A DNA stretch of 64,000 bases from Clostridia bacterium. Its GTDB lineage: Bacteria; Bacillota; Clostridia; UMGS1840. The position numbers and the translations under genes were made by a program. The notes under the pieces are model-generated. The model made no database searches. It was not told the origin of the DNA and saw nothing but the letters and a program-made list of their open reading frames with translations. Positions within the stretch are counted from its first letter, which is position 1; every line of letters starts with the position of its first letter. The DNA lies in assembly GCA_017468465.1 (NCBI GenBank), contig JAFUIN010000018.1, forward strand, positions 9,766 to 73,765, read 5' to 3'. Shown piece by piece: positions 2,133 through 51,625 of the stretch.

Positions 2133-3800
2133 TTACACTTCCATAATAATAGGAAGAATCATGGGCGAACGCTTGATTTTTTTGTAAAGAAAATCTGAAA
2201 CTGCGTTACGCATTTCATTTTTTAAGGTGGACCAGTCAGTAACATTTCGTTGAAGCAGACTTTCTAATGCTTCCGTGGCCACCAGACGGGTTTCTTCCAT
2301 CAGTTCTTCGCTTTCCCGCATATATACAAATCCACGGGAAATAATATCGGGGCCGGACAGCACTTGATTGTTCTGGGAAGACAGCGACACGACAATGACA
2401 ATCAGCCCATCCTGAGACAGGTGCTTTCTGTCACGCAGCACAATGTTGCCCACATCTCCCACCGAAAGACCTGCCACAAACACCTTTCCTGCGGGAACGC
2501 TGCCTGCGGGTTTTGCCTGGCTTTTGGAAACAGTGAGTACATTGCCCAGCTGCAGAATGAAAATTCTGTCTTCTGGAATGCCCACCTCCATCGCCAGATT
2601 TTTGTGGTGGATGAGATGCTTATATTCGCCATGAATGGGCATGAAAAACTTCGGTTTGGTAAGCGCTAAAATAATTTTCAGCTCTTCCCGACAGGCGTGG
2701 CCGGAAACGTGCACGTCTGCAAGATTGTCATACACCACCGAGCAACCCCGCTTAAACAGCTCGTTTACCACGGTGGAAACCAGCTTTTCGTTTCCGGGGA
2801 TGGGGTTGGCGCTTAACACCACCAAATCGTTGGAATTAAGCTCTACCTTGCGGTGTGCCGAAAATGCCATGCGGTGCAGTCCGCTCATGGGTTCGCCCTG
2901 GCTTCCGGTGGTGATAATGGTCAGATGTTCGTTGTTATAATTTTTGATGTTATCAATGTCAATGAGGGTGCCTTTTGGAATTTTCATATAGCCAAGCTCC
3001 TGAGCAACCTGCACGATGTTTTCCATGCTTCTGCCCGAAACGGCAACCTTTCGGTTGTAGCGGACAGAGGCGTCAATAATTTGCTGCACACGGTGCACGT
3101 TGGATGCAAAGGTAGCAATGATAATTCTTTTTTTGGGGTTGGAAATAAAAATGTCGTTTAAGGCTTTCCCAACCGAACGCTCGCTTTGCGTATAGCCGGG
3201 ACGCTCTGCATTGGTAGATTCGGACAACAGCAGTGTAACGCCTTTTTTTCCCAGCTCTCCAAATCTTGCCAGGTCTATCATATTGCCCGAAACGGGAGTG
3301 GTGTCAATTTTGAAGTCACCGGTGTGCAAAATGATGCCCTCAGGGGTATGAATTGCAATGGCAACCGAATCTGCAATGGAGTGGTTGGTGTGGATAAATT
3401 CCACCATGACGTCGCCGAATTTTAAGGTATCGCCTGCGTTGACCTGATTTAAGGCAACCTTTGAGAGCAGATTATGCTCTTTGAGCTTAAATTTTACAAG
3501 ACCAATGGTCAGCTTTGTACCAAACACAGGGATGGCGCATTCCTTCATCAGATAAGGGATGCCGCCGATGTGGTCCTCGTGACCGTGAGTCAGCACCAAA
3601 GCCTTGAATTTGTCTTTGTTTTTCACGATGTAAGAATAGTCGGGAATGACCAGGTCAACCCCCAACATATTTTCATCGGGGAAGGCAATTCCGCAATCAA
3701 TTAAAATTCCGATATCTCCGTACTCAATAGCGGTCAGGTTTTTGCCGATTTCGTGAAGACCGCCCAGGGGAATTACCTTCAGTATTTTCTTTTTTGCCAC
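2133..3800 (-). CDS. rnj: Ribonuclease J
   Basis: Metallo-beta-lactamase/beta-CASP protein with HGHEDHIGG. Start moved to the GTG at 3800, which follows AGGAGG (VAKKKILKVIPLGG); the longer ORF-track start has no RBS. Confidence 0.9.
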   Translation of the reverse strand: MAKKKILKVIPLGGLHEIGKNLTAIEYGDIGILIDCGIAFPDENMLGVDLVIPDYSYIVKNKDKFKALVLTHGHEDHIGGIPYLMKECAIPVFGTKLTIGLVKFKLKEHNLLSKVALNQVNAGDTLKFGDVMVEFIHTNHSIADSVAIAIHTPEGIILHTGDFKIDTTPVSGNMIDLARFGELGKKGVTLLLSESTNAERPGYTQSERSVGKALNDIFISNPKKRIIIATFASNVHRVQQIIDASVRYNRKVAVSGRSMENIVQVAQELGYMKIPKGTLIDIDNIKNYNNEHLTIITTGSQGEPMSGLHRMAFSAHRKVELNSNDLVVLSANPIPGNEKLVSTVVNELFKRGCSVVYDNLADVHVSGHACREELKIILALTKPKFFMPIHGEYKHLIHHKNLAMEVGIPEDRIFILQLGNVLTVSKSQAKPAGSVPAGKVFVAGLSVGDVGNIVLRDRKHLSQDGLIVIVVSLSSQNNQVLSGPDIISRGFVYMRESEELMEETRLVATEALESLLQRNVTDWSTLKNEMRNAVSDFLYKKIKRSPMILPIIMEV

Positions 3801-3976
3801 AATGATCCTCCTATAGTAAATTAGTAATCCGATACTAAAAATTTTTCCGAACAAACTATCTAATTAAGTATAGCACAAATTTTAGCTTCTGTCAATTATA
3901 TAACAGTATTATTTCTCTTCCTTTTTGAAAATAATCAAAATATTGGAAAAACCTTTTCCAAATCCGGAAAAAATAC

Positions 3977-4005
3977 TTTACAAAAACAAAAAACTGTGCT
4001 ATAGT
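3977..4005 (+). promoter_or_regulatory. Predicted sigma-A promoter of nfnAB
   Basis: TTTACA, 17-nt spacer, TGC-TATAGT (extended -10). Confidence 0.5.
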
Positions 4006-4134
4006 AAGATAATATTATAGAAGTTATAAATAGTGTAAAATGAGGAATTTGAAACTTTTTACCGCAATTATCGTCAAATTTGAGCAACATTTGTCAAAAG
4101 GTCTCGTTTTGCATTAGAAAGTGAGGTTAGATAT

Positions 4135-4983
4135 ATGTTTTTGGTAACCAAAAGAAAAGAGCTCAATCCCACCGTCACTCTGATGGAGGTGGAAGCTCCT
4201 CGTATTGCCAAAAAAGCAAAAGCAGGTCAGTTTATCATCTTAAGAGTGGATGAGGATGGAGAGCGGATTCCTCTGACGGTTGCGGATACCAACCCCGAAG
4301 CAGGGACTGTCACCATTATTTTTCAGATTGTGGGCGCTACTACCGAAAAACTCAACCATATTCCCCAAGGCGGATATCTTCATGATTTTGTTGGGCCTCT
4401 TGGTGTTCCTTCAGCGATAGAAGGGCTGAAAAAGGTAGCAGTTGTTGGTGGCGGTGTTGGCTGTGCCATTGCGTATCCCATTGCCAAAGCATTGCATAAT
4501 CAGGGTACCCAGGTGCATTCCATTGTAGGCTTCCGTAATCGGGATTTAGTGATTTTAGAAGACGAGTTTAAGGAAGCAAGCGACATTTTGAAGCTGATGA
4601 CAGATGACGGCTCCTACGGAGAAAAAGGGCTGGTCACAGATGCGTTGAAAGCATTGATTGAAAGCGGAGAAGAATATGACGAGGTAATCGCTATCGGTCC
4701 CCTGGTAATGATGAAGTTTGTGTCAAAGCTGACAAAAGAATATGGCATCAAAACCACTGTCAGCATGAATCCTATTATGATAGACGGCACGGGCATGTGT
4801 GGGGGATGCCGTTTGACAGTTGGCGGAGAAACCAAATTTGCCTGTGTAGACGGACCGGATTTTGACGGTCATTTGGTAGATTTTGATGAAGCAATTCAGC
4901 GTTCCCGTATGTATTTCGGAACAGAACGCCATCAGCATGAAGCAACCTGTAATTTGTTTAAGGGGGTAAAAGAAGATGCCTAA
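4135..4983 (+). CDS. nfnA: NfnA-type ferredoxin-NADP+ oxidoreductase small subunit (PyrK-like FAD/[2Fe-2S])
   Basis: 282 aa, PyrK-like fold with C-terminal CGGCRLTVGG...FACVDGPDF. Overlaps and precedes a GltD-like subunit. Confidence 0.8.
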   Translation: MFLVTKRKELNPTVTLMEVEAPRIAKKAKAGQFIILRVDEDGERIPLTVADTNPEAGTVTIIFQIVGATTEKLNHIPQGGYLHDFVGPLGVPSAIEGLKKVAVVGGGVGCAIAYPIAKALHNQGTQVHSIVGFRNRDLVILEDEFKEASDILKLMTDDGSYGEKGLVTDALKALIESGEEYDEVIAIGPLVMMKFVSKLTKEYGIKTTVSMNPIMIDGTGMCGGCRLTVGGETKFACVDGPDFDGHLVDFDEAIQRSRMYFGTERHQHEATCNLFKGVKEDA

Positions 4984-15995: not shown

Positions 15996-17243
15996 GTGTC
16001 GAATATTAAGATTACGGGCAAAATTCCGTTGGTGGGAGAAGTAAGGGTAAACGGGTCAAAAAACGCAGCATTGCCGATTTTAGCTGCTACCATTTTATGC
16101 GAAAATCCGTGCTGTATTCAGAATGTGCCCAATATTTCGGACATTTTTAATATGCAGATTTTGCTGCAGTCAACCGGCAGAAAAGGGGAATTTTCAAAAA
16201 ATTGCTACTTGTGTGAGGCAGCTGCAGAAATTTCTCCCTTTGCCTCTTACGATTTGGCAAGCAGATTGCGGGCATCCTTTTTGGTTGCCGGACCATTGGT
16301 GGCAAAAACAGGCTATGCAGAGGTTGCCTACCCGGGTGGCTGTCAAATCGGAGAACGGCCGGTGGATTTACATTTGAAGGGATTTTCCAAGCTTGGTATT
16401 ACGGTGGATATTCAGAATGGATATGTAAGCCTGAAATCAAAAAAACTACGAGGAAATAGAATCTATCTTGATTTTCCCAGTGTAGGGGCAACAGAAAATC
16501 TGATGATGACCGCAACGCTGGCAAGCGGGACAACTGTTTTGGAAAATGCTGCTGCCGAGCCTGAAATTACAGACCTTGCCAATTTTTTGAATCAAATGGG
16601 GGCAAATATTACCGGGGCGGGAACCGATACTATCACCATTGAAGGGGTGAAAAACCTTTCCGGTGGAACATATGCGGTAATTCCGGATCGAATAGAAGCC
16701 GGCACCTATATGCTGGCAGCCGCAGCAACAGGTGGAAAGGTGAAGGTGTCCAATGTTTTGACGGAGCACTTGAATCCGGTCATTGCAAAGCTCCGGGAAA
16801 CGGGAACACAGGTAGCAGTTGGGGAAAACGAGGTGTTGGTAGAGGGAAAATCCAACTACAAGGCGGTGGATATCAAAACAATGCCGCATCCCGGCTTTCC
16901 CACCGATTTACAGGCACAATTTTGCGCGATGCTTGCGGGGGCGAAGGGGACTTCTATTATCACTGAAACCATTTTCGAAAATCGGTTTCATCACCTGCCG
17001 GAGCTGAAACGACTGGGTGCAAAAATCACTACAGAGGGAAGAACGGCTGTCATTGAGGGAACCGGCAAATTGAATGGTGCACAAGTCAGAGCGGGTGATT
17101 TAAGAGCTGCGGCATCTTTAGTAATTGGAGGTCTGATGGCAGAGGGCACCACCATTGTGGAGGATAACGGATATCTGTTTCGCGGATATGAACGATTGGT
17201 GGAAAATCTCAAAAATTTAGGTGCAGATATTGAAATATTATAA
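15996..17243 (+). CDS. murA: UDP-N-acetylglucosamine 1-carboxyvinyltransferase
   Basis: 415 aa, EPSP-synthase-like fold sequence (GSKNAALPILAA, catalytic-loop Cys in YPGGCQIG). GTG start after AAGGAGA. Confidence 0.9.
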   Translation: MSNIKITGKIPLVGEVRVNGSKNAALPILAATILCENPCCIQNVPNISDIFNMQILLQSTGRKGEFSKNCYLCEAAAEISPFASYDLASRLRASFLVAGPLVAKTGYAEVAYPGGCQIGERPVDLHLKGFSKLGITVDIQNGYVSLKSKKLRGNRIYLDFPSVGATENLMMTATLASGTTVLENAAAEPEITDLANFLNQMGANITGAGTDTITIEGVKNLSGGTYAVIPDRIEAGTYMLAAAATGGKVKVSNVLTEHLNPVIAKLRETGTQVAVGENEVLVEGKSNYKAVDIKTMPHPGFPTDLQAQFCAMLAGAKGTSIITETIFENRFHHLPELKRLGAKITTEGRTAVIEGTGKLNGAQVRAGDLRAAASLVIGGLMAEGTTIVEDNGYLFRGYERLVENLKNLGADIEIL

Positions 17244-17246
17244 AAA

Positions 17247-17279
17247 ACAAGCGATAGCAGAAACGCTATCGCTTGTTTT
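17247..17279. terminator. Bidirectional terminator (murA / stalk-domain protein)
   Basis: 12-bp stem ACAAGCGATAGC/GCTATCGCTTGT with flanking A- and T-runs. Confidence 0.75.
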
Positions 17280-17291
17280 GGCTGGCGCATA

Positions 17292-18371
17292 TTAACGGGC
17301 AATTTCTGCAAGCTGGAGCTGCAGAGTAACAAAGCCTTCCATATCAAATGTCACGGTTTCGCCTAAGGAAGAAGTTAAGTCAGACAAGGTGGCAGTGACT
17401 TCATTCACGAGAATTTCACCGTTACATAATATAGAAAAGATTCCCTCAATTTGCTTATCGGTGATACTGATAAGCTTGTTTAGTTTCAGGGTGTATTGCT
17501 TGCCATCAACGGTAAAATTGCCGGAGACGGTTAAAGCTGATTGGTCGGGAGAAATTTCAAAGCCTAACAAGCCGGTTGCCTGTTCTCCGTTGTAATTTTT
17601 TGCATTCAATCCGTAAAAAACAGGGGATTGCTTTTGGGTATTTGGTTCGGTGTTTTTCAATGCGGCAAGCAGACGATAATCATATTCTTCGGTATGTAGA
17701 CTGAGCTGATTGTTTTCAACGGTTACAGTTCCTTTGATTGTTTCATATTTTACGGCTTCGTTCATAATAACCTTAAACGCTCCCGTAAATCCGTTTTGTT
17801 GGGTAGAAGTTGTTTCCACAAGCGTGATTTCGCAATCTATGTAATCTCCCAATCCGCCGTTATTGCAACGCATTTTTGCAGAAAAAGAGGCATTTTTTTG
17901 AGTGGCATCCCAAGCTAATGCTACTTCTCCTTTGATTGCTTCTTTTTGGTAGCCCGAAATTTGCAGAATTTCATTGGTGGTGTAAGAAAACTCCGAAGGC
18001 ATTGCTACAGGAGCTTGTGTCGGGTTTGGAGCTTCTGTAGGGGTTGGTGCGGGCGTTGCAACGAGGGGATTGTCGGGGAGTGTGACGTCGGTTAAGAAAA
18101 CGGTATTGGTTGTGCCGTCCCATCTGACTTCTTTTTGCAGAGCTTCTCCGATGGCACGGACCGGAAGGTAGGTTGTGCCATTTACGATAAAAGGTTCTAC
18201 GCGGTTTCCGTTGGCATCTTTTGGTTGAATTTCTGTCCCGTTGATCATAATTTTGATGTCAGAAAACCACGCTTCCAGTGTTTCACTTTCTGTTTTTGCC
18301 AGCGTGATGCCACCGGTCAGCATAGAACCGATCAGCATTCCTGATACCATGCTTCTAATGTTTTGTTTCAT
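17292..18371 (-). CDS. Secreted protein with a copper-amine-oxidase N-terminal-like (stalk) domain
   Basis: Signal-like N-terminus MKQNIRSMVSGMLIGSMLTGG after AAAGGAGG, then the NGTTYLPVRAIGEAL stalk-domain motif and a Pro/Thr/Ala linker. The ORF-track start at 18488 was rejected for lack of an RBS. Confidence 0.7.
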   Translation of the reverse strand: MKQNIRSMVSGMLIGSMLTGGITLAKTESETLEAWFSDIKIMINGTEIQPKDANGNRVEPFIVNGTTYLPVRAIGEALQKEVRWDGTTNTVFLTDVTLPDNPLVATPAPTPTEAPNPTQAPVAMPSEFSYTTNEILQISGYQKEAIKGEVALAWDATQKNASFSAKMRCNNGGLGDYIDCEITLVETTSTQQNGFTGAFKVIMNEAVKYETIKGTVTVENNQLSLHTEEYDYRLLAALKNTEPNTQKQSPVFYGLNAKNYNGEQATGLLGFEISPDQSALTVSGNFTVDGKQYTLKLNKLISITDKQIEGIFSILCNGEILVNEVTATLSDLTSSLGETVTFDMEGFVTLQLQLAEIAR

Positions 18372-18624
18372 GTTTGTTTCCTCCTTTGGAACATCTGTTT
18401 TTCGCGCGGTTGTGCGTAAAAAATGCGCAGTGCTCTGGACACTACGCATGAAAAATGCACAGCTCCTTTTGCTGCGACACAAATTCATTCATCCTATTAA
18501 AGCATGTTGAAACAGAGCCTGCATTTTTACACAAAAAAAGGTATAAAAATACACACTTTAACAGGAAGCTTTATTTGAATTTATGTCGCAAATATATTGT
18601 AACACAGTTTTAGATATTATGCAA
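18372..18624 (-). promoter_or_regulatory. Promoter plus about 218-nt structured leader with a leader terminator (cassette B)
   Basis: TTGCAT(18619-24)-17-TGT-TACAAT(18596-601). Long-range helix GCGAC(18585-90)/GUCGC(18473-78). Terminator GCGUAGUG/CACUGCGC plus AUUUUUUA at 18417-18447. Confidence 0.45.
18585..18615 (-). repeat. 31-bp direct repeat, copy 1 (promoter -10 / leader 5' end)
   Basis: GTCGCAAATATATTGTAACACAGTTTTAGAT matches 19057-19087 at 30 of 31 positions. Confidence 0.9.
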
Positions 18625-18667
18625 GCATTTTTTCCTTTTATGTTTGAAAGTAAACAATCTTTTTTTG

Positions 18668-18892
18668 TTATCGAACGGAACCATTAAACAGTCCACCGTT
18701 ATTTTTCGGGTGTCTGGGACAGCCTTCGCTAAGACAATTATCACAGTCCTGGGGTTTGAAATACTCCAGACAACAGCATAGATAATTGCACTCGTCACAA
18801 CAACATTCATTTCCATTCTCACCGTTCCCGGGGCAGTCTTTCCCATGATTTCCGGGAATCAACTCAATTCCGGTGGGTCCGTCTATAATCAT
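18668..18892 (-). CDS. Small cysteine-rich protein (11 Cys in 74 aa, two CCC triplets), function unknown
   Basis: Strong RBS (GAGGAAGG, 5 nt before the ATG). Sequence MIIDGPTGIELIPGNHGKDCPGNGENGNECCCDECNYLCCCLEYFKPQDCDNCLSEGCPRHPKNNGGLFNGSVR. I do not recognise the family. Confidence 0.6.
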   Translation of the reverse strand: MIIDGPTGIELIPGNHGKDCPGNGENGNECCCDECNYLCCCLEYFKPQDCDNCLSEGCPRHPKNNGGLFNGSVR

Positions 18893-19096
18893 ATACCTTC
18901 CTCTTTTCCAAATAAAAAATGCGCCAACCGAAGTTGACGCATAAAAATGTATAACTTCGGTACTGTTGCGACACAGTCTGTTCTAAAACAGGATGAACTA
19001 CCAAAGCATACATTTTTAACAAAAGTATGCCCTGTTTTAGAACAATATTCAGCTGCGTCGCAAATATATTGTAACACAGTTTCAGATGAAAAACAA
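18893..19096 (-). promoter_or_regulatory. Promoter plus about 170-nt structured leader with terminator/antiterminator (cassette A)
   Basis: TTGTTT(19091-96)-17-TGT-TACAAT(19068-73). About 98-nt compound hairpin 19063-18966, including a perfect 13-bp inverted repeat (18980-92 / 19031-43). Antiterminator 18953-61/18927-35. Terminator GCGUCAAC-UUCG-GUUGGCGC plus AUUUUUUAUUU at 18910-18940. Confidence 0.5.
19057..19087 (-). repeat. 31-bp direct repeat, copy 2
   Basis: GTCGCAAATATATTGTAACACAGTTTCAGAT; see copy 1. Confidence 0.9.
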
Positions 19097-19210
19097 GCTT
19101 TTTTATATTTTTTTCATAAAAATTGGGTAACTGCTTTCCAGTGACATTACCTGTTTTCACAAAATTTGCGGAATTTGTGGAATCTGCCACTACAATTTCC
19201 CTGATTTTGC

Positions 19211-19239
19211 TTGACAAAATTTTCCCCTTATGCTATGAT
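19211..19239 (+). promoter_or_regulatory. Predicted leu operon promoter
   Basis: TTGACA, 17-nt spacer, TGC-TATGAT. Confidence 0.6.
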
Positions 19240-19274
19240 GAAATCAAATATGATACGAATTGGAGATTGTCTCT

Positions 19275-19367
19275 ATGATGCAATTTACGGCAAACTTATT
19301 TTTCCTGTACTGCATTACCTTGTTGTTATGTTTGGGTAATGCTGTTTGCCGTGCAACCGAAAGATAA
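19275..19367 (+). CDS. Candidate leucine-rich leader peptide (30 aa)
   Basis: GGAGA lies 8 nt upstream. Sequence MMQFTANLFFLYCITLLLCLGNAVCRATER has 6 Leu including LLL-C-L. Sits between the promoter and a terminator just upstream of leuA. Confidence 0.45.
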   Translation: MMQFTANLFFLYCITLLLCLGNAVCRATER

Positions 19368-19390
19368 TCTCTTTTTGAAGGCTATAAAAA

Positions 19391-19434
19391 AGAGTCTGCG
19401 GTTGTATCTGATTGCAACAGCAGGCTTTTTCTTT
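19391..19434 (+). terminator. Leader (attenuator) terminator upstream of leuA
   Basis: Stem 19391-19404 / 19415-19428 (about 11 bp plus AU/GU pairs, one mismatch) followed by TTTTTCTTT. CAACCG at 19354-59 can pair with CGGTTG at 19399-404 as an antiterminator. Confidence 0.55.
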
Positions 19435-19465
19435 ATATAATATTTTTTAAGAAGGAGTGAGAACT

Positions 19466-20968
19466 ATGGCAAAATGTGTGAAAATTTTTGACACAACCTT
19501 GCGCGACGGAGAACAGTCTCCCGGCTGCAGTATGAACCTAACCGAAAAAATTGAGGTGGCTCGTCAGTTAGAACTGTTAAAGGTGGACATCATTGAAGCC
19601 GGCTTTGCCATTGCCTCTCCTATGGATTTTGAATCGGTAAAAGCAATTTCCGGCGCAGTAAAGGATGCAACCGTGGCAAGTTTGGCGCGTGCAACCTATA
19701 AAGATATTGATGCGGCATACGAGGCAGTAAAAGATGCAGTAAGCCCCCGTATTCACACCTTTATTGCAACTTCTCCCATTCATATGCAATACAAGTTGAA
19801 AATGAAAGAAGAAGAGGTAATTGAACGGGTAAAAGAAATGGTTTCCTATGCCAAAAAATACTGTTCTGATGTGGAATTTTCTGCAGAAGATGCTTCCCGC
19901 AGTGACAAAGCCTTTTTAGCCAAAGTGATTGAAACTGCCATTTCAGCCGGTGCCACCACTGTGAACATTCCCGACACGGTGGGATATTCTACCCCTGATG
20001 AATTTGCGGCGTATATCACCTACTTAAAAGAACAGGTTCCGAATATAGAAAAAGCAGATATTTCTGTTCATTGCCACAACGATTTGGGAATGGCAGTTGC
20101 CAACTCTTTAGCAGCAGTCAAAGCCGGTGCAACCCAAGTGGAATGTACCGTAAACGGTATTGGAGAACGTGCCGGAAACACCTCTCTGGAAGAAGTGGTA
20201 ATGGGCATTCAAACCCGAAAAGATTACTACGATGCAGCAACCAACATCAATACCCGTCAGATTTACAGAAGTGCGAAGCTGATTTCTGCCATTACCGGTG
20301 TGAGCATCCCCCCCAATAAAGCCATTACCGGTGCCAATGCCTTTGCGCACGAATCGGGCATTCACCAGCATGGAATGCTCCAGAATCGGCAAACCTACGA
20401 AATTATGACGCCGGAATCTATCGGGAAGCCTGCCATTCAGATGGTTTTGGGAAAACATTCGGGCAGACACGCTTTTGAAGAACGTCTCCAGATTTTAGGC
20501 TATCAACTGACCAAAGAAGAACTGGACTGCACCTTTGAGCATTTCAAACTGTTGGCTGATAAGAAAAAATCTATTACCGACCGTGACATCGAAGCTTTGC
20601 TTGCCAACAAAAAGGTGCAGATTCACGAAACCTATACACTGGAGCGGTTTGTTATCAATTCGGGTAACACCATTACCTCCACCGCTATGATTAAAGTAAA
20701 ATGTGGGGATGATTTCATCGAAAAGGTGGCAACCGGTGACGGTCCCATTGATGCGGCATTCAAGACCATCAATCAGATTACCGAAAAGAATTTTATTTTG
20801 AATGACTATGTAATTCACGCTGTTACCGAAGGCGAAGATGCGTTGGGCGAAGCGGTGGTGAAGCTCCATCTTGACGGCAAAAAAGCAACCGGCAGAGCCA
20901 TCAGCACCGACATTGTGGAAGCAAGTATTAAAGCCTACTTAAATGGCGTAAACAAACTGATTGTGTAA
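19466..20968 (+). CDS. leuA: 2-isopropylmalate synthase
   Basis: About 500 aa with [11 protein letters not shown] and HxH motifs and a C-terminal LeuA dimerisation/regulatory domain. ATG 19466 lies 8 nt after AAGGAG. Confidence 0.9.
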
Positions 20969-48573: not shown

Positions 48574-49754
48574 TGAAACAAAAGAACCCTTTTTCTCCGC
48601 TTGAGTTTGTCAATAAACAGGTAAGGGAAATTCCGCCCTCCGGCATTCGTCGCTTTTTTGATATTGCGGCAACAATGGAGGATGTTATTTCCCTGGGGGT
48701 TGGCGAGCCAGACTTTGTCACCCCCTGGCACATCCGTTCCGAAGCAGTGCGCTCTCTGGAAAAGGGGCGTACTTATTATACTGCCAATGCAGGCCTTATG
48801 GAGCTTCGGCAGGAAATTGCCCGTTATCAGGAAAAAAACATTCACGTTTCTTACGACCCGAAAACCGAAATTGTGGTAACCGTAGGTGCTTCTGAGGCGT
48901 TGGACGGTGCACTTCGTGCTCTGGTTGAACCGGGAGACGAGGTGCTGATTCCGGAACCAAGCTTTGTGTGTTATAAGCCTTGCACCGTTCTTGCGGGTGG
49001 GATTCCCGTTCCCATTGAAACCAAGGCAGAAAACGGCTTCAAACTCACACCGGAGTTACTTAGAAACGCCATTACCGAGAAAACCAAGCTGTTGGTATTG
49101 CCCTACCCAAACAATCCTACCGGTGGCATTATGACTGAGGAGGATTTGTCGCTGATTGTGCCGATTATAAAGGAAGCCAACATTATGGTGATATCTGACG
49201 AAATTTATTCGGAGCTTACCTATACCGGCAAGCATGTTTCCATTGCCACCTTTGACGGCATGAAAGAACGCACCGTCGTGATTAACGGCTTTTCCAAAGC
49301 CTTCGCCATGACCGGCTGGCGTCTTGGTTATGCCTGTGCCCATCCTGATGTGCTTTCTGCCATCTTGAAAATTCATCAGTACGGCATTATGTCGGCATCT
49401 ACCTTTTCGCAATATGCGGCAATCGAAGCCTTAAAACACGGCAGAGCCGACATTGAGCGAATGAAAGAGGAATACAACATCCGTCGGAAATTTTTGGTGG
49501 ATGCCCTGAACGAAATGGGGATGACTTGCTTTAATCCCTACGGAGCGTTTTATGTGTTTCCCTCTATTCAGAAATTTCATATGACCTCCGAAGAATTCTG
49601 CCAGAAGCTTTTGGAAGAACAGCGGCTTGCGGTGGTTCCCGGAACAGCATTTGGCGACTCGGGCGAGGGTTATGTAAGAATTTCTTATGCTTATTCCAAA
49701 GAAAGCATCGCCAAAGCATTAAAACGGTTAGAGGCATTTGCCAAAGACCATTAG
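48573..49754 (+). CDS. Class I/II PLP-dependent aminotransferase (AspB/AlaT-like)
   Basis: 393 aa with NPTG and SKAFAMTGWRLGY (PLP Lys). Confidence 0.8.
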   Translation: MKQKNPFSPLEFVNKQVREIPPSGIRRFFDIAATMEDVISLGVGEPDFVTPWHIRSEAVRSLEKGRTYYTANAGLMELRQEIARYQEKNIHVSYDPKTEIVVTVGASEALDGALRALVEPGDEVLIPEPSFVCYKPCTVLAGGIPVPIETKAENGFKLTPELLRNAITEKTKLLVLPYPNNPTGGIMTEEDLSLIVPIIKEANIMVISDEIYSELTYTGKHVSIATFDGMKERTVVINGFSKAFAMTGWRLGYACAHPDVLSAILKIHQYGIMSASTFSQYAAIEALKHGRADIERMKEEYNIRRKFLVDALNEMGMTCFNPYGAFYVFPSIQKFHMTSEEFCQKLLEEQRLAVVPGTAFGDSGEGYVRISYAYSKESIAKALKRLEAFAKDH

Positions 49755-49767
49755 AAAAGAGGAAATT

Positions 49768-50262
49768 ATGACATTAAATATTGTGTTATTTGAGCCGGAA
49801 ATTCCGCAAAACACAGGCAATATTGCCCGTACCTGTGCTGCAACAGGTGCCAAGCTTCATTTGGTTGGTCCCATGGGCTTTACCATTGACGATAAAAAGC
49901 TCAAGCGCGCAGGGCTGGACTACTGGCACGATGTGGATATCACTTATTACAACAGCATCCGCGAGTTTTACGAAAAAAATCAAGGGGTGATGTATTACTT
50001 AACCACCAAAGCCCCGAAAGATTATTCCGAAGCAACCTTTGAAGACGGATGCTACCTCATTTTCGGGAAAGAAACCGCTGGTATTCCCGAAGAAATTTTA
50101 CTGGAAAATCAAGAAACCTGTCTTCGGATTCCCATGATTGGAGAAATCCGCAGCTTAAACCTTTCCAATTCGGTTGCCATTGTGGCATACGAGGCATTCC
50201 GTCAGGACGGATTTTCTCATTTTCGCCTTGAGGGTAAGCTCACCAAATATGATTGGAAATAA
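49768..50262 (+). CDS. trmL: tRNA (cytidine/uridine(34)-2'-O)-methyltransferase TrmL
   Basis: SPOUT fold with MTLNIVLFEPEIPQNTGNIARTC and a C-terminal LNLSNSVAI knot. Confidence 0.85.
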   Translation: MTLNIVLFEPEIPQNTGNIARTCAATGAKLHLVGPMGFTIDDKKLKRAGLDYWHDVDITYYNSIREFYEKNQGVMYYLTTKAPKDYSEATFEDGCYLIFGKETAGIPEEILLENQETCLRIPMIGEIRSLNLSNSVAIVAYEAFRQDGFSHFRLEGKLTKYDWK

Positions 50263-50281: not shown

Positions 50282-51625
50282 ATGATACATAAATATCAGT
50301 TATTCGGGAATAATATTGTACTGGATATTTATTCCGGTTCCGTACACGTGGTTTCCGATGCAGTATATGATTTACTCGGAGAATATGAGTTTGACGAAAG
50401 CAAAATTTCCGAGGAGATTACACAAAAATATTCCGAAGAAGTTCTTTCGGAAGCAAAGGAAGAAATCAAAGAGCTTATCAAGGAAGGAACCTTGTATTCC
50501 CACGATATTTATAAGCCGTTTCGGGACGCAAAAACCAAAACTCCTCCCGTGAAGGCACTTTGTCTCCACATGGCACACGATTGTGACTTAAGATGCCGAT
50601 ACTGCTTTGCCGGCACCGGTGCATTCCATGGGGTAAGAAGCATTATGCCACTGGAGGTTGCAAAAAAAGCCATTGATTTTGTCATTGCACATTCCCAGAA
50701 CCGAAAAAACATCGAAATCGACTTTTTCGGCGGAGAACCCATGCTCAACTTTGATGTGGTAAAAGAAACCGTTTCCTACGCTCGTGAACAGGGATTAAAG
50801 CATGGAAAACACTTCCGTTTTACCATCACCACAAACGGTCTTTTAATCAACGAAGAGCAGATGGAATATGTGAATAAAAATATGGATAACATAGTGCTTT
50901 CCTGCGATGGCAGAAAAGAAGTACACGATAAAAACAGAAAAACCATTTCGGGAGAAGGCACATACGATAAAGTCATCGGCAAATTTATGAAAATTGCCAA
51001 TGACAGAAAACAAATGGACTATTATATCCGCGGCACCTTTACCAAGGACAATAAGGATTTCACCAAAGATGTACTCCATTTGGCAGATTTAGGTTTCAAA
51101 CAGATTTCTGTGGAACCTGTTACCTTAGACGAAAAATCGCCCATGGCAATCGGCTATGAAGATTTGCCTGAAATTTTCAAAGAATATGAAAAATTGGCAG
51201 AAGAAATCATCAAACGGGAAAAATCCGGAAAAGACCGCTTCAACTTCTTCCATTTTATGATAGATTTAGACAACGGCCCCTGTGCATTACGACGGATCTC
51301 CGGATGCGGTGCCGGCTGCGAATATGCGGCGGTTACTCCCTCCGGTGACATTTTCCCTTGTCACCAGTTTGCCGATGAACCGGAATATAAAATCGGAAAT
51401 GTGTTGGACGGCACCTATGAAATGCCCGAACAGTTCCGTGACCGTGACATCTACACCGTAAAAGGCTGCGACAGCTGTTTTGCAAAATTCTATTGCAGTG
51501 CCGGCTGCAGCGCCAGCTCCTTAAAATATGAAAAAGATTTATATAAACCTTATGACATTGCTTGTCAGATGCAGAAAAAACGTGTAGAATGTGCCATTGC
51601 TATCAAAGCTGCATTGGCAGAATGA
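50282..51625 (+). CDS. scfB: Radical SAM/SPASM peptide maturase of the SCIFF-associated (ScfB) type
   Basis: N-terminus MIHKYQLFGNNIVLDIYSGSVHVVSD is typical of ScfB. CDLRCRYC radical SAM motif and a Cys-rich SPASM C-terminus. Confidence 0.8.
   Translation: MIHKYQLFGNNIVLDIYSGSVHVVSDAVYDLLGEYEFDESKISEEITQKYSEEVLSEAKEEIKELIKEGTLYSHDIYKPFRDAKTKTPPVKALCLHMAHDCDLRCRYCFAGTGAFHGVRSIMPLEVAKKAIDFVIAHSQNRKNIEIDFFGGEPMLNFDVVKETVSYAREQGLKHGKHFRFTITTNGLLINEEQMEYVNKNMDNIVLSCDGRKEVHDKNRKTISGEGTYDKVIGKFMKIANDRKQMDYYIRGTFTKDNKDFTKDVLHLADLGFKQISVEPVTLDEKSPMAIGYEDLPEIFKEYEKLAEEIIKREKSGKDRFNFFHFMIDLDNGPCALRRISGCGAGCEYAAVTPSGDIFPCHQFADEPEYKIGNVLDGTYEMPEQFRDRDIYTVKGCDSCFAKFYCSAGCSASSLKYEKDLYKPYDIACQMQKKRVECAIAIKAALAE

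Follow-up and report, generated by a model that had tools for sequence, protein, structure and literature searches.

The 64,000-nt stretch of contig JAFUIN010000018.1 of a Clostridia bacterium (hereafter called the window) encodes on its minus strand, at 18668..18892, a 74-residue cysteine-rich protein, and the data presented here show that this is a real gene under selection and that its product belongs to a large new family that falls into the wide group of small, cysteine-rich, probably metal-binding proteins. The family is marked by a distinctive signature (CPGNGE...CCCDEC) and by unusual regulation. The explanation that we favour, tentatively and somewhat short of an even chance, is that of a conditionally expressed, acidic mini-protein with two cysteine sites that would hold a metal, be it zinc, an iron-sulfur (Fe-S) cluster or another thiophilic metal.

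The open reading frame (ORF) starts with ATG and is the longest possible one in its frame in the ORF listing. It is present exactly as the initial annotation had described it, with 74 residues, 11 cysteines and two CCC triplets; the cysteines, at positions 20, 30, 31, 32, 35, 39, 40, 41, 50, 53 and 58, make up 15% of the protein. The identical protein has the NCBI accession MBQ7951003.1 ('hypothetical protein IJ278_04720 [Clostridia bacterium]') and comes from a metagenome-assembled genome (MAG). Three nucleotides 5' of the ATG the sequence reads GAGGAAGG (18896..18903, minus strand), a Shine-Dalgarno-like ribosome-binding site (RBS), and GGAGG-like sites are found at the same position in homologues. 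Comparison of the window gene with five homologues gave 0.10-0.17 non-synonymous differences per site versus 0.87-0.97 synonymous ones, the latter being saturated, and the gene is under strong purifying selection. Together with the match in the public collection and the homologous clusters described below, this bears out the earlier suggestion that the gene is probably real. An ORF scan of the window revealed no other convincing small cysteine-rich ORF, those with at least 8% cysteine all overlapping known genes. The gene is present in the window as a single copy.

A search with the single sequence returned 136 clusters of 45-111 residues, not one of which has a name or a Pfam domain. An exhaustive profile search extended the family to 613 representatives at 50% identity, and at 90% identity the profile search gave at least 3,094 clusters. 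The named genomes place the hosts among gut and rumen Clostridia, i.e. unclassified Clostridia MAGs, Oscillospiraceae, Ruminococcus, Acutalibacteraceae and Faecousia, and one carrier, Fumia xinanensis NSJ-33 (homologue at L052:5001-5219), is a cultured organism. Each of the MAGs nearest to the window has 3-4 paralogs at dispersed sites, and the source MAG of MBQ7951003.1 has at least two (IJ278_02955 and IJ278_03625). The window protein matched no family in Pfam or NCBIfam at E<=10, and when 147 divergent members were compared with Pfam one by one (E<=1) the only match was to the HTH_3 domain of one fusion protein. This family-library search, which the initial annotation had proposed as a check, matched no characterised family, and is in line with the view expressed there that the protein resembles neither SCIFF, bacterial metallothionein nor the Clostridial cysteine-rich small domain. 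The Pfam models Cys_rich_KTR, CPCC, CPXG, VLP and CWC match neither the window protein nor any of the 147 members, and a literature search returned nothing relevant to the family. The best match in a profile search of PDB sequences, shisa-3 (E 0.17), was rejected as a chance match driven by cysteine composition.

The signature of the family reads M-I-[IV]-D-x-T-G-x-x-L-I-P-G-N-x-G-x-D-C-P-G-N-G-E in the N-terminal half, followed after 2-11 residues by C-C-C-D-E-C-[DN]-[YF]-x-x-C-C and, after a further 6-9 residues, by C-x2-C-x4-C-P-[RH]. A set of 150 sequences shows no variation at L11, P13, G14, G17, C31, C32, C35, C40, C41, C50 and C58. The N-terminal segment (MIIDxTGxxLIPGNxGxD) is free of cysteine, as had been noted initially, and is the best-conserved part of the whole protein and not a variable leader. 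The earlier count of 11 cysteines is likewise correct for the window protein, but only ten of them are conserved: the canonical ten are present in 189 of 336 members, and C39, the first residue of the second CCC triplet, is a cysteine in 17 of the 336, being usually replaced by L, M or I. Losses among the remaining cysteines are patterned. C40, C50, C53 and C58 are lost together in 36 of the 336 members, which keep C20, C30-32, C35 and C41, and C30 alone is missing in 23 and C31 alone in 17, with both missing in only three. Two CxxC knuckles, C32-D-E-C35 and C50-x-x-C53, can be seen in the sequence, and C58 is followed by proline in 247 of the 264 members with a residue at that position.

This pattern divides the protein into three parts (all on the minus strand). 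Module I, residues 1-41 (18770..18892), contains the MIIDxTGxxLIPGN hairpin, the GxDCPGNGE loop and the CCCDEC[DN]Y..xC stretch; it is the most conserved part, stands alone in a short subfamily and is also kept in fused and tandem variants. Module II, residues 40-60 (18713..18775), is defined by C-x9-C-x2-C-x4-C-P-[RH] and by the joint loss of its cysteines. The C-terminal tail, residues 61-74 with the stop codon (18668..18712), varies in length and sequence across the family. The joint loss of C40, C50, C53 and C58 and the mutual redundancy of C30 and C31 suggest two separable cysteine sites, a proposed site I formed by C20, either C30 or C31, C32, C35 and C41, and a proposed, separable four-cysteine site II formed by C40, C50, C53 and C58-Pro; the adjacent pair C40-C41 would bridge the two sites. 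Conservation is centred on cysteines and on the turn residues Gly, Pro, Asn, Asp and Glu, which is what a fold organised by metal would lead one to expect. In the explanation that we favour, the conserved core of 60 residues would consist of two cysteine modules, the first framed by turns of invariant Gly, Pro, Asn, Asp and Glu residues, whose thiolates would hold zinc, an Fe-S cluster or another thiophilic metal, and the protein would fold only around this metal. Judged from the sequence, metal binding is probable, and the protein is probably cytoplasmic because no signal peptide or membrane segment can be recognised in it. Of the options raised by the initial annotation, a metal- or Fe-S-binding mini-protein appears to be the best remaining reading.

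AlphaFold gave no confident fold, either for the full-length protein with 95 sequences (pLDDT 51.7) or for residues 1-62 with 150 sequences (pLDDT 56.7). The lack of a fold in a metal-free prediction is what one would expect of a metal-thiolate protein, without being diagnostic. It would also suit a metallothionein-like sponge, induced by metal stress, that does nothing but trap excess thiophilic metal (Zn, Cu, Cd) in a metal-thiolate cluster, and the cysteine content of 15%, the CC and CCC runs typical of such clusters and a default-off regulation (see below), appropriate for a stress-induced protein, point the same way. We nevertheless consider a pure sponge improbable, as the protein matches no bacterial metallothionein model, its non-cysteine residues are very strongly conserved and its architecture is modular with two sites; in addition, neither the 3-4 paralogs scattered over a genome nor the short forms that now and then occur on plasmids are what this explanation would predict, and the same applies to the regulators described below.

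The arrangement of the domain in other proteins bears on whether the product is a folded protein or a precursor peptide. The cysteine-rich domain occurs alone in short forms (P0091, P0101 and P0107), in tandem (P0221), behind 60-residue N-terminal helical extensions (P0117 and P0120) and, in a 156-residue protein (P0260), N-terminal to a C-terminal HTH_3 domain. The gene of this last protein lies at L073:618-1088, and in front of it the leader described below is present twice in tandem, at 178-323 and 464-607. Fusions, tandem and extended forms together argue that the region behaves as a folded domain and not as a cleaved precursor.

The alternative, that the protein is the precursor of a ribosomally synthesised and post-translationally modified peptide (RiPP), with an N-terminal leader and a cysteine-rich core that is thioether-cross-linked by a distant radical S-adenosylmethionine (SAM) maturase such as a ScfB without SCIFF, was one of the options of the initial annotation, which had also speculated on a long-range pairing with the scfB gene of the window. 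This gene (50282-51625, plus strand) encodes a bona fide ScfB, with 643.9 bits against the NCBIfam model TIGR03974 (cutoff 425) and a score below the cutoff of the 'not_ScfB' exception model. As had been observed, it lacks its usual adjacent substrate gene: no SCIFF-like ORF was found at its side or elsewhere in the 64 kb of the window, and it is directly preceded by a 174-residue ORF (49738-50262) which looks like a tRNA methyltransferase. A small protein with a conserved N-terminus and a cysteine-rich C-terminal half, several dispersed paralogs per genome, an orphan ScfB in the same window and a C-D-E-C that presumably bears a loose resemblance to the C-G-E-C of SCIFF all speak for such a precursor. 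The scfB gene, however, is 31 kb away from the cysteine-rich gene, and the surroundings of 74 family loci, 599,728 bases in all, contain no relative of the radical SAM/SPASM enzyme ScfB. Neither clustering of the neighbouring genes nor the Pfam tables of 12 loci (L001-L012) revealed a recurrent maturase, protease or exporter; the inspection of homologue neighbourhoods that the initial annotation had suggested showed only small helix-turn-helix (HTH) repressors to recur in distantly related genomes. With 74 residues and ten conserved cysteines from residue 20 onwards the protein does not have the size of SCIFF (about 45 residues, six cysteines), nor was it matched at E<=10 by any model of the NCBIfam library, which we take to include the SCIFF precursor model TIGR03973. 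Moreover, the cysteine-bearing region is as conserved as the supposed leader, the domain is found N-terminal to HTH_3, in tandem and after 60-residue extensions, and control by a repressor or an attenuator occurs without any biosynthetic operon. A RiPP precursor is therefore very unlikely, and neither the RiPP option nor the pairing with ScfB finds support here.

The regulation of the gene is the second unusual property. A sigma-A-type promoter read from the sequence (TTGTTT, 17 nt, TG-n-TACAAT; approximately 19063..19096, on the minus strand like all leader elements below) is followed by a structured 5' leader RNA of about 170 nt (18893..19066), which comprises P1 (TTGCGAC/GTCGCAA), P2, a central hairpin, a linker and a terminator. 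The good RBS and the regulated leader which the initial annotation had ascribed to the gene are hence both in place, GAGGAAGG standing close to the ATG and a terminator-bearing leader in front of it. The leader folds at -57.8 kcal/mol (z -7.6), and the minimum-free-energy fold includes the terminator. In 11 aligned leaders compensatory changes were seen in 20 of the 28 consensus pairs, among them pairs of the terminator stem. The intrinsic terminator detected by a terminator scan, ATGCGTCAACTTCGGTTGGCGCAT + TTTTTTATTT (18910..18942), consists of a hairpin (18942..18919) and a T-run. The 24-nt linker CAGTACCGAAGTTATACATTTTTA (18942..18965) acts as a putative switch, being able to pair either with the central segment or with the 5' arm and loop of the terminator; in the window the duplex energies are -21.3 kcal/mol (z -5.9) and -12.6 kcal/mol (z -4.2), respectively. 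Over 25 leaders, pairing with the central segment gave -15 to -24 kcal/mol with a median z of -3.66 (z < -2 in 23 of them), and pairing with the terminator 5' arm and loop a median z of -2.03. The partner sequences of the linker differ between leader subgroups yet remain complementary. Long-range pairing was judged here by duplex energies; in fixed alignment columns the register of the A-run and T-run slips between subgroups. A terminator directly 5' of the RBS and a conserved, mutually exclusive alternative pairing are the features of a transcription attenuator.

We propose that the default state of the gene is off and that it is turned on under certain conditions. Transcription from the sigma-A promoter would run through the leader of about 170 nt into the terminator of the lowest-energy fold just 5' of the RBS, and pairing of the 24-nt linker with the 5' half of the terminator instead would allow read-through. 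The default state, probably also in vivo, would be off because the minimum-energy fold of the leader contains the terminator. The region 17000-20500 showed no match in Rfam 15 at E<=1, and focused, sensitive scans of the leader gave only sub-threshold chance matches, with nothing relevant in 10 related loci. A leader peptide inside the leader was considered and rejected, its AUG not being conserved across leader subgroups.

The window carries the leader twice. Matches were obtained by nhmmer at 19063..18897 and 18591..18417, and the two copies share an identical 24-nt motif across the -10 box (19057-19080 and 18585-18608). The second, paralogous promoter and leader (18417..18608, minus strand, from the leader alignment and nhmmer; terminator 18449..18423) precedes a gene for a protein of 359 residues with a Cu_amine_oxidN1 (stalk) domain (17292..18371, minus strand; Pfam PF07833, E 2.3e-10) and an apparent N-terminal signal sequence. 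The order of cysteine-rich gene and stalk-domain gene with second leader recurs at three other loci (L028, L032 and L033). The two genes share a leader type, which does not imply a common function. In all sequence examined the leader was found only 5' of cysteine-rich genes, of the syntenic stalk-domain gene and of one membrane protein gene (L062), and the two paralogous leaders of the window are a candidate for a new riboswitch or attenuator class. At L062 the extra copy (3546-3763) lies beside an integrase gene (2219-3421), and the ORF of 280 residues under it (3776-4618) appears to contain hydrophobic stretches and a CxxCxGxG-like motif. A loss of the ORF in close relatives with persistence of the leaders, named by the initial annotation as evidence against the gene, was not what we observed, the ORF being intact in thousands of relatives. 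The reverse was seen at two loci (L013:4700-5000 and L022:4700-5000), where the leader is cut to the terminator 3' half, adjoining the apparent start of a gene on the opposite strand, and the cysteine-rich ORF is still intact. Just 5' of many cassettes of leader and cysteine-rich gene in the clade of the window there is a repeat of about 300 nt (L001:5441-5740, L015, L018, L021, L028, L029, two copies in L032, L033, L046, L075 and L156), with 67-84% identity between non-identical loci. It is absent from the window and has no Rfam match; a mobile repeat and a further non-coding RNA are both conceivable.

The neighbourhoods of the family genes vary from lineage to lineage. Clustering of neighbouring ORFs showed that, among distantly related genomes, only a small HTH gene in divergent orientation is met repeatedly beside the family gene, the remaining recurrent clusters reflecting synteny among closely related MAGs. 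A divergent HTH_26 protein of 67-74 residues is found in 17 loci and a classic XRE-type HTH_3 repressor in four more; the HTH_26 partners belong to PF13443, with scores of 49.4 and 48.4 bits against the Pfam cutoff of 22. Beside the HTH_26 gene, an intergenic TTTACA-N17-TATAAT promoter is overlapped by a near-perfect 32-bp palindrome, TAGACTAATACATTATATAATGTATTAGTCTA, which is found at L007:5948-5980 and also at L037-L040, L052, L067, L068 and many of L076-L155. The arrangement of repressor and palindrome is seen at no fewer than 21 genome loci. In these other lineages a divergent Cro/CI-type repressor bound to the palindrome over the -10 box would do the same job as the attenuator of the window. 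An alignment of the HTH_26 partners (A7) contains two invariant cysteines, at residues 51 and 56 (..ETLCLLLxCTPN..), and from the sequence this pair could form a thiol-based switch.

The association with HTH proteins was examined from the other side with independently retrieved HTH_26 loci from metagenomes. Only 20 of the 72 testable loci had a cysteine-rich gene next to them, and the others carried unrelated small genes in the same position. The idea of a dedicated HTH partner was rejected on this ground, and the HTH_26 gene is better regarded as a generic silencing cassette: the 67-residue repressor is highly conserved, and its palindrome cassette serves different small cargo genes according to the locus. 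This result is among several that weigh against the conditionally expressed metal-binding protein that we favour. The only HTH fusion, P0260, is a single cluster from a contig of 1.3 kb, and none of the known signatures of zinc fingers, ferredoxins or metallothioneins fits the spacing of the cysteines. A disordered peptide or a RiPP precursor would equally be expected to give a low AlphaFold confidence. Finally, the adjacent regulators are not the classical metal sensors (ArsR/SmtB, MerR, CsoR), and HTH_26/XRE repressors that also control unrelated cargo speak against the metal-stress sponge as well. A redox or metal sensor that acts with HTH proteins, suggested by the four HTH associations and weakened by the reverse test and by the single-cluster fusion, is speculative. 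In its full form, i.e. a new class of small metal or Fe-S redox-sensing domain which would act on transcription with HTH proteins as a functional counterpart of the actinobacterial WhiB-like proteins and which in the clade of the window would be under the control of a riboswitch-like attenuator RNA not described before, we regard it as unlikely.

The same cassette, together with the context of some family genes, raises the possibility that the protein serves mobile elements in an accessory role, for instance as a small toxin, as an anti-defence protein or in the regulation of transfer; it would then be silenced by a Cro/CI-type repressor and chromosomally domesticated in some lineages. Short forms on plasmid-like contigs have relaxase/NikA genes (L070) or a Rep3 replication gene (L071) as neighbours and in both cases directly follow the gene of a protein with an apparent HTH-like N-terminus and a long coiled coil. 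The loci L004-L006 adjoin an integrase gene, with a Mob_Pre gene also present in L005. In agreement with such a role are the widely varying genomic contexts, the use of the HTH_26 and palindrome cassette by unrelated small genes and the repeat of about 300 nt accompanying many cassettes in the clade of the window. Against it, searches with tblastn in 72,556 curated plasmids and 50,697 phages found no member of the family, only one of 2.9 million viral contigs carries a relative, and the window protein has no match in PHROGs or PADLOC. The window gene lies among the housekeeping genes leuA, murA and cdaA, and deep conservation with ten fixed cysteines is unusual for fast-evolving conflict proteins. 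On balance a mobile accessory function seems quite improbable. The proteins encoded directly 5' of the short forms (L070:468-1034 and L071:519-1040) have 173-188 residues and no Pfam family listed.

A family of more than 3,000 clusters in human and animal gut Clostridia thus lacks a name, a domain model and a predicted fold. Ten fixed cysteines, together with silencing by two unrelated mechanisms, suggest that the product is needed conditionally; in a strict anaerobe the most obvious candidates would be conditions of metal, redox or thiol stress. Definition of the cofactor would add a new small metalloprotein fold, and the leader RNA, absent from Rfam, is a separate candidate for a new class of regulatory RNA. 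The family deserves an entry in Pfam or NCBIfam, which would end the 'hypothetical protein' labels, and cultured Fumia xinanensis NSJ-33 brings experiments within reach.

A second regulatory arrangement was noticed close by on the plus strand, 5' of leuA (19211-19456). It begins with a strong promoter-like site (TTGACA-17-TATGAT, 11 of 12 matches), followed by an ORF of 30 codons that includes a run of Leu codons (about 19275-19367, MMQFTANLFFLYCITLLLCLGNAVCRATER); this could be a leucine leader-peptide attenuator. The region has no T-box or other Rfam match.

The cysteine-rich protein can in some respects be compared with several known systems. With SCIFF (TIGR03973) and its maturase ScfB it has in common that it is a small cysteine-rich peptide of Clostridia, with a ScfB gene in the same window, but it differs in length, cysteine number and lack of a model match as described above, its gene is not next to scfB in the window or in any of the 74 loci, and it has another N-terminus and occurs in fusions. 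The metallothioneins SmtA/BmtA resemble it in small size, cysteine density, conditional expression and a likely thiolate-metal chemistry; in contrast, the present protein matches neither Pfam (Metallothio_Pro) nor NCBIfam, its non-cysteine residues are strongly conserved, and it is controlled by HTH_26 (PF13443), XRE-type HTH_3 or an RNA leader and not by SmtB/ArsR. The Clostridial 2x[4Fe-4S] ferredoxins (Fer4) also have an acidic core of about 55-60 residues with 8-10 cysteines, belong to strict anaerobes and have one motif ending in Cys-Pro, as does C50-x2-C53-x4-C58-P here, whereas the CxxCxxCxxxCP spacing is lacking here, no Fer4 family matches the window protein or the 147 members, and the CCC/CC runs are not a feature of ferredoxins.

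The WhiB-like (Wbl) proteins of Actinobacteria are small and cysteine-rich, with several paralogs per genome, are occasionally mobile and are linked to transcription factors; they have four cysteines and a different distribution among phyla, and the likeness is a functional analogy only, with no homology. At the RNA level the order of promoter, structured domain, exclusive terminator and antiterminator pairings and RBS is that of attenuating riboswitches and leader RNAs, from which the window leader differs in having no Rfam match and no conserved leader peptide. The repressor loci, finally, are similar to acr-aca cassettes and C-protein operons in that a bare 67-residue HTH repressor goes with exchangeable cargo and with a palindromic operator that overlaps the promoter of a small gene, but the loci described here are divergent instead of co-directional, and their cysteine-rich cargo family is deeply conserved and mostly chromosomal.

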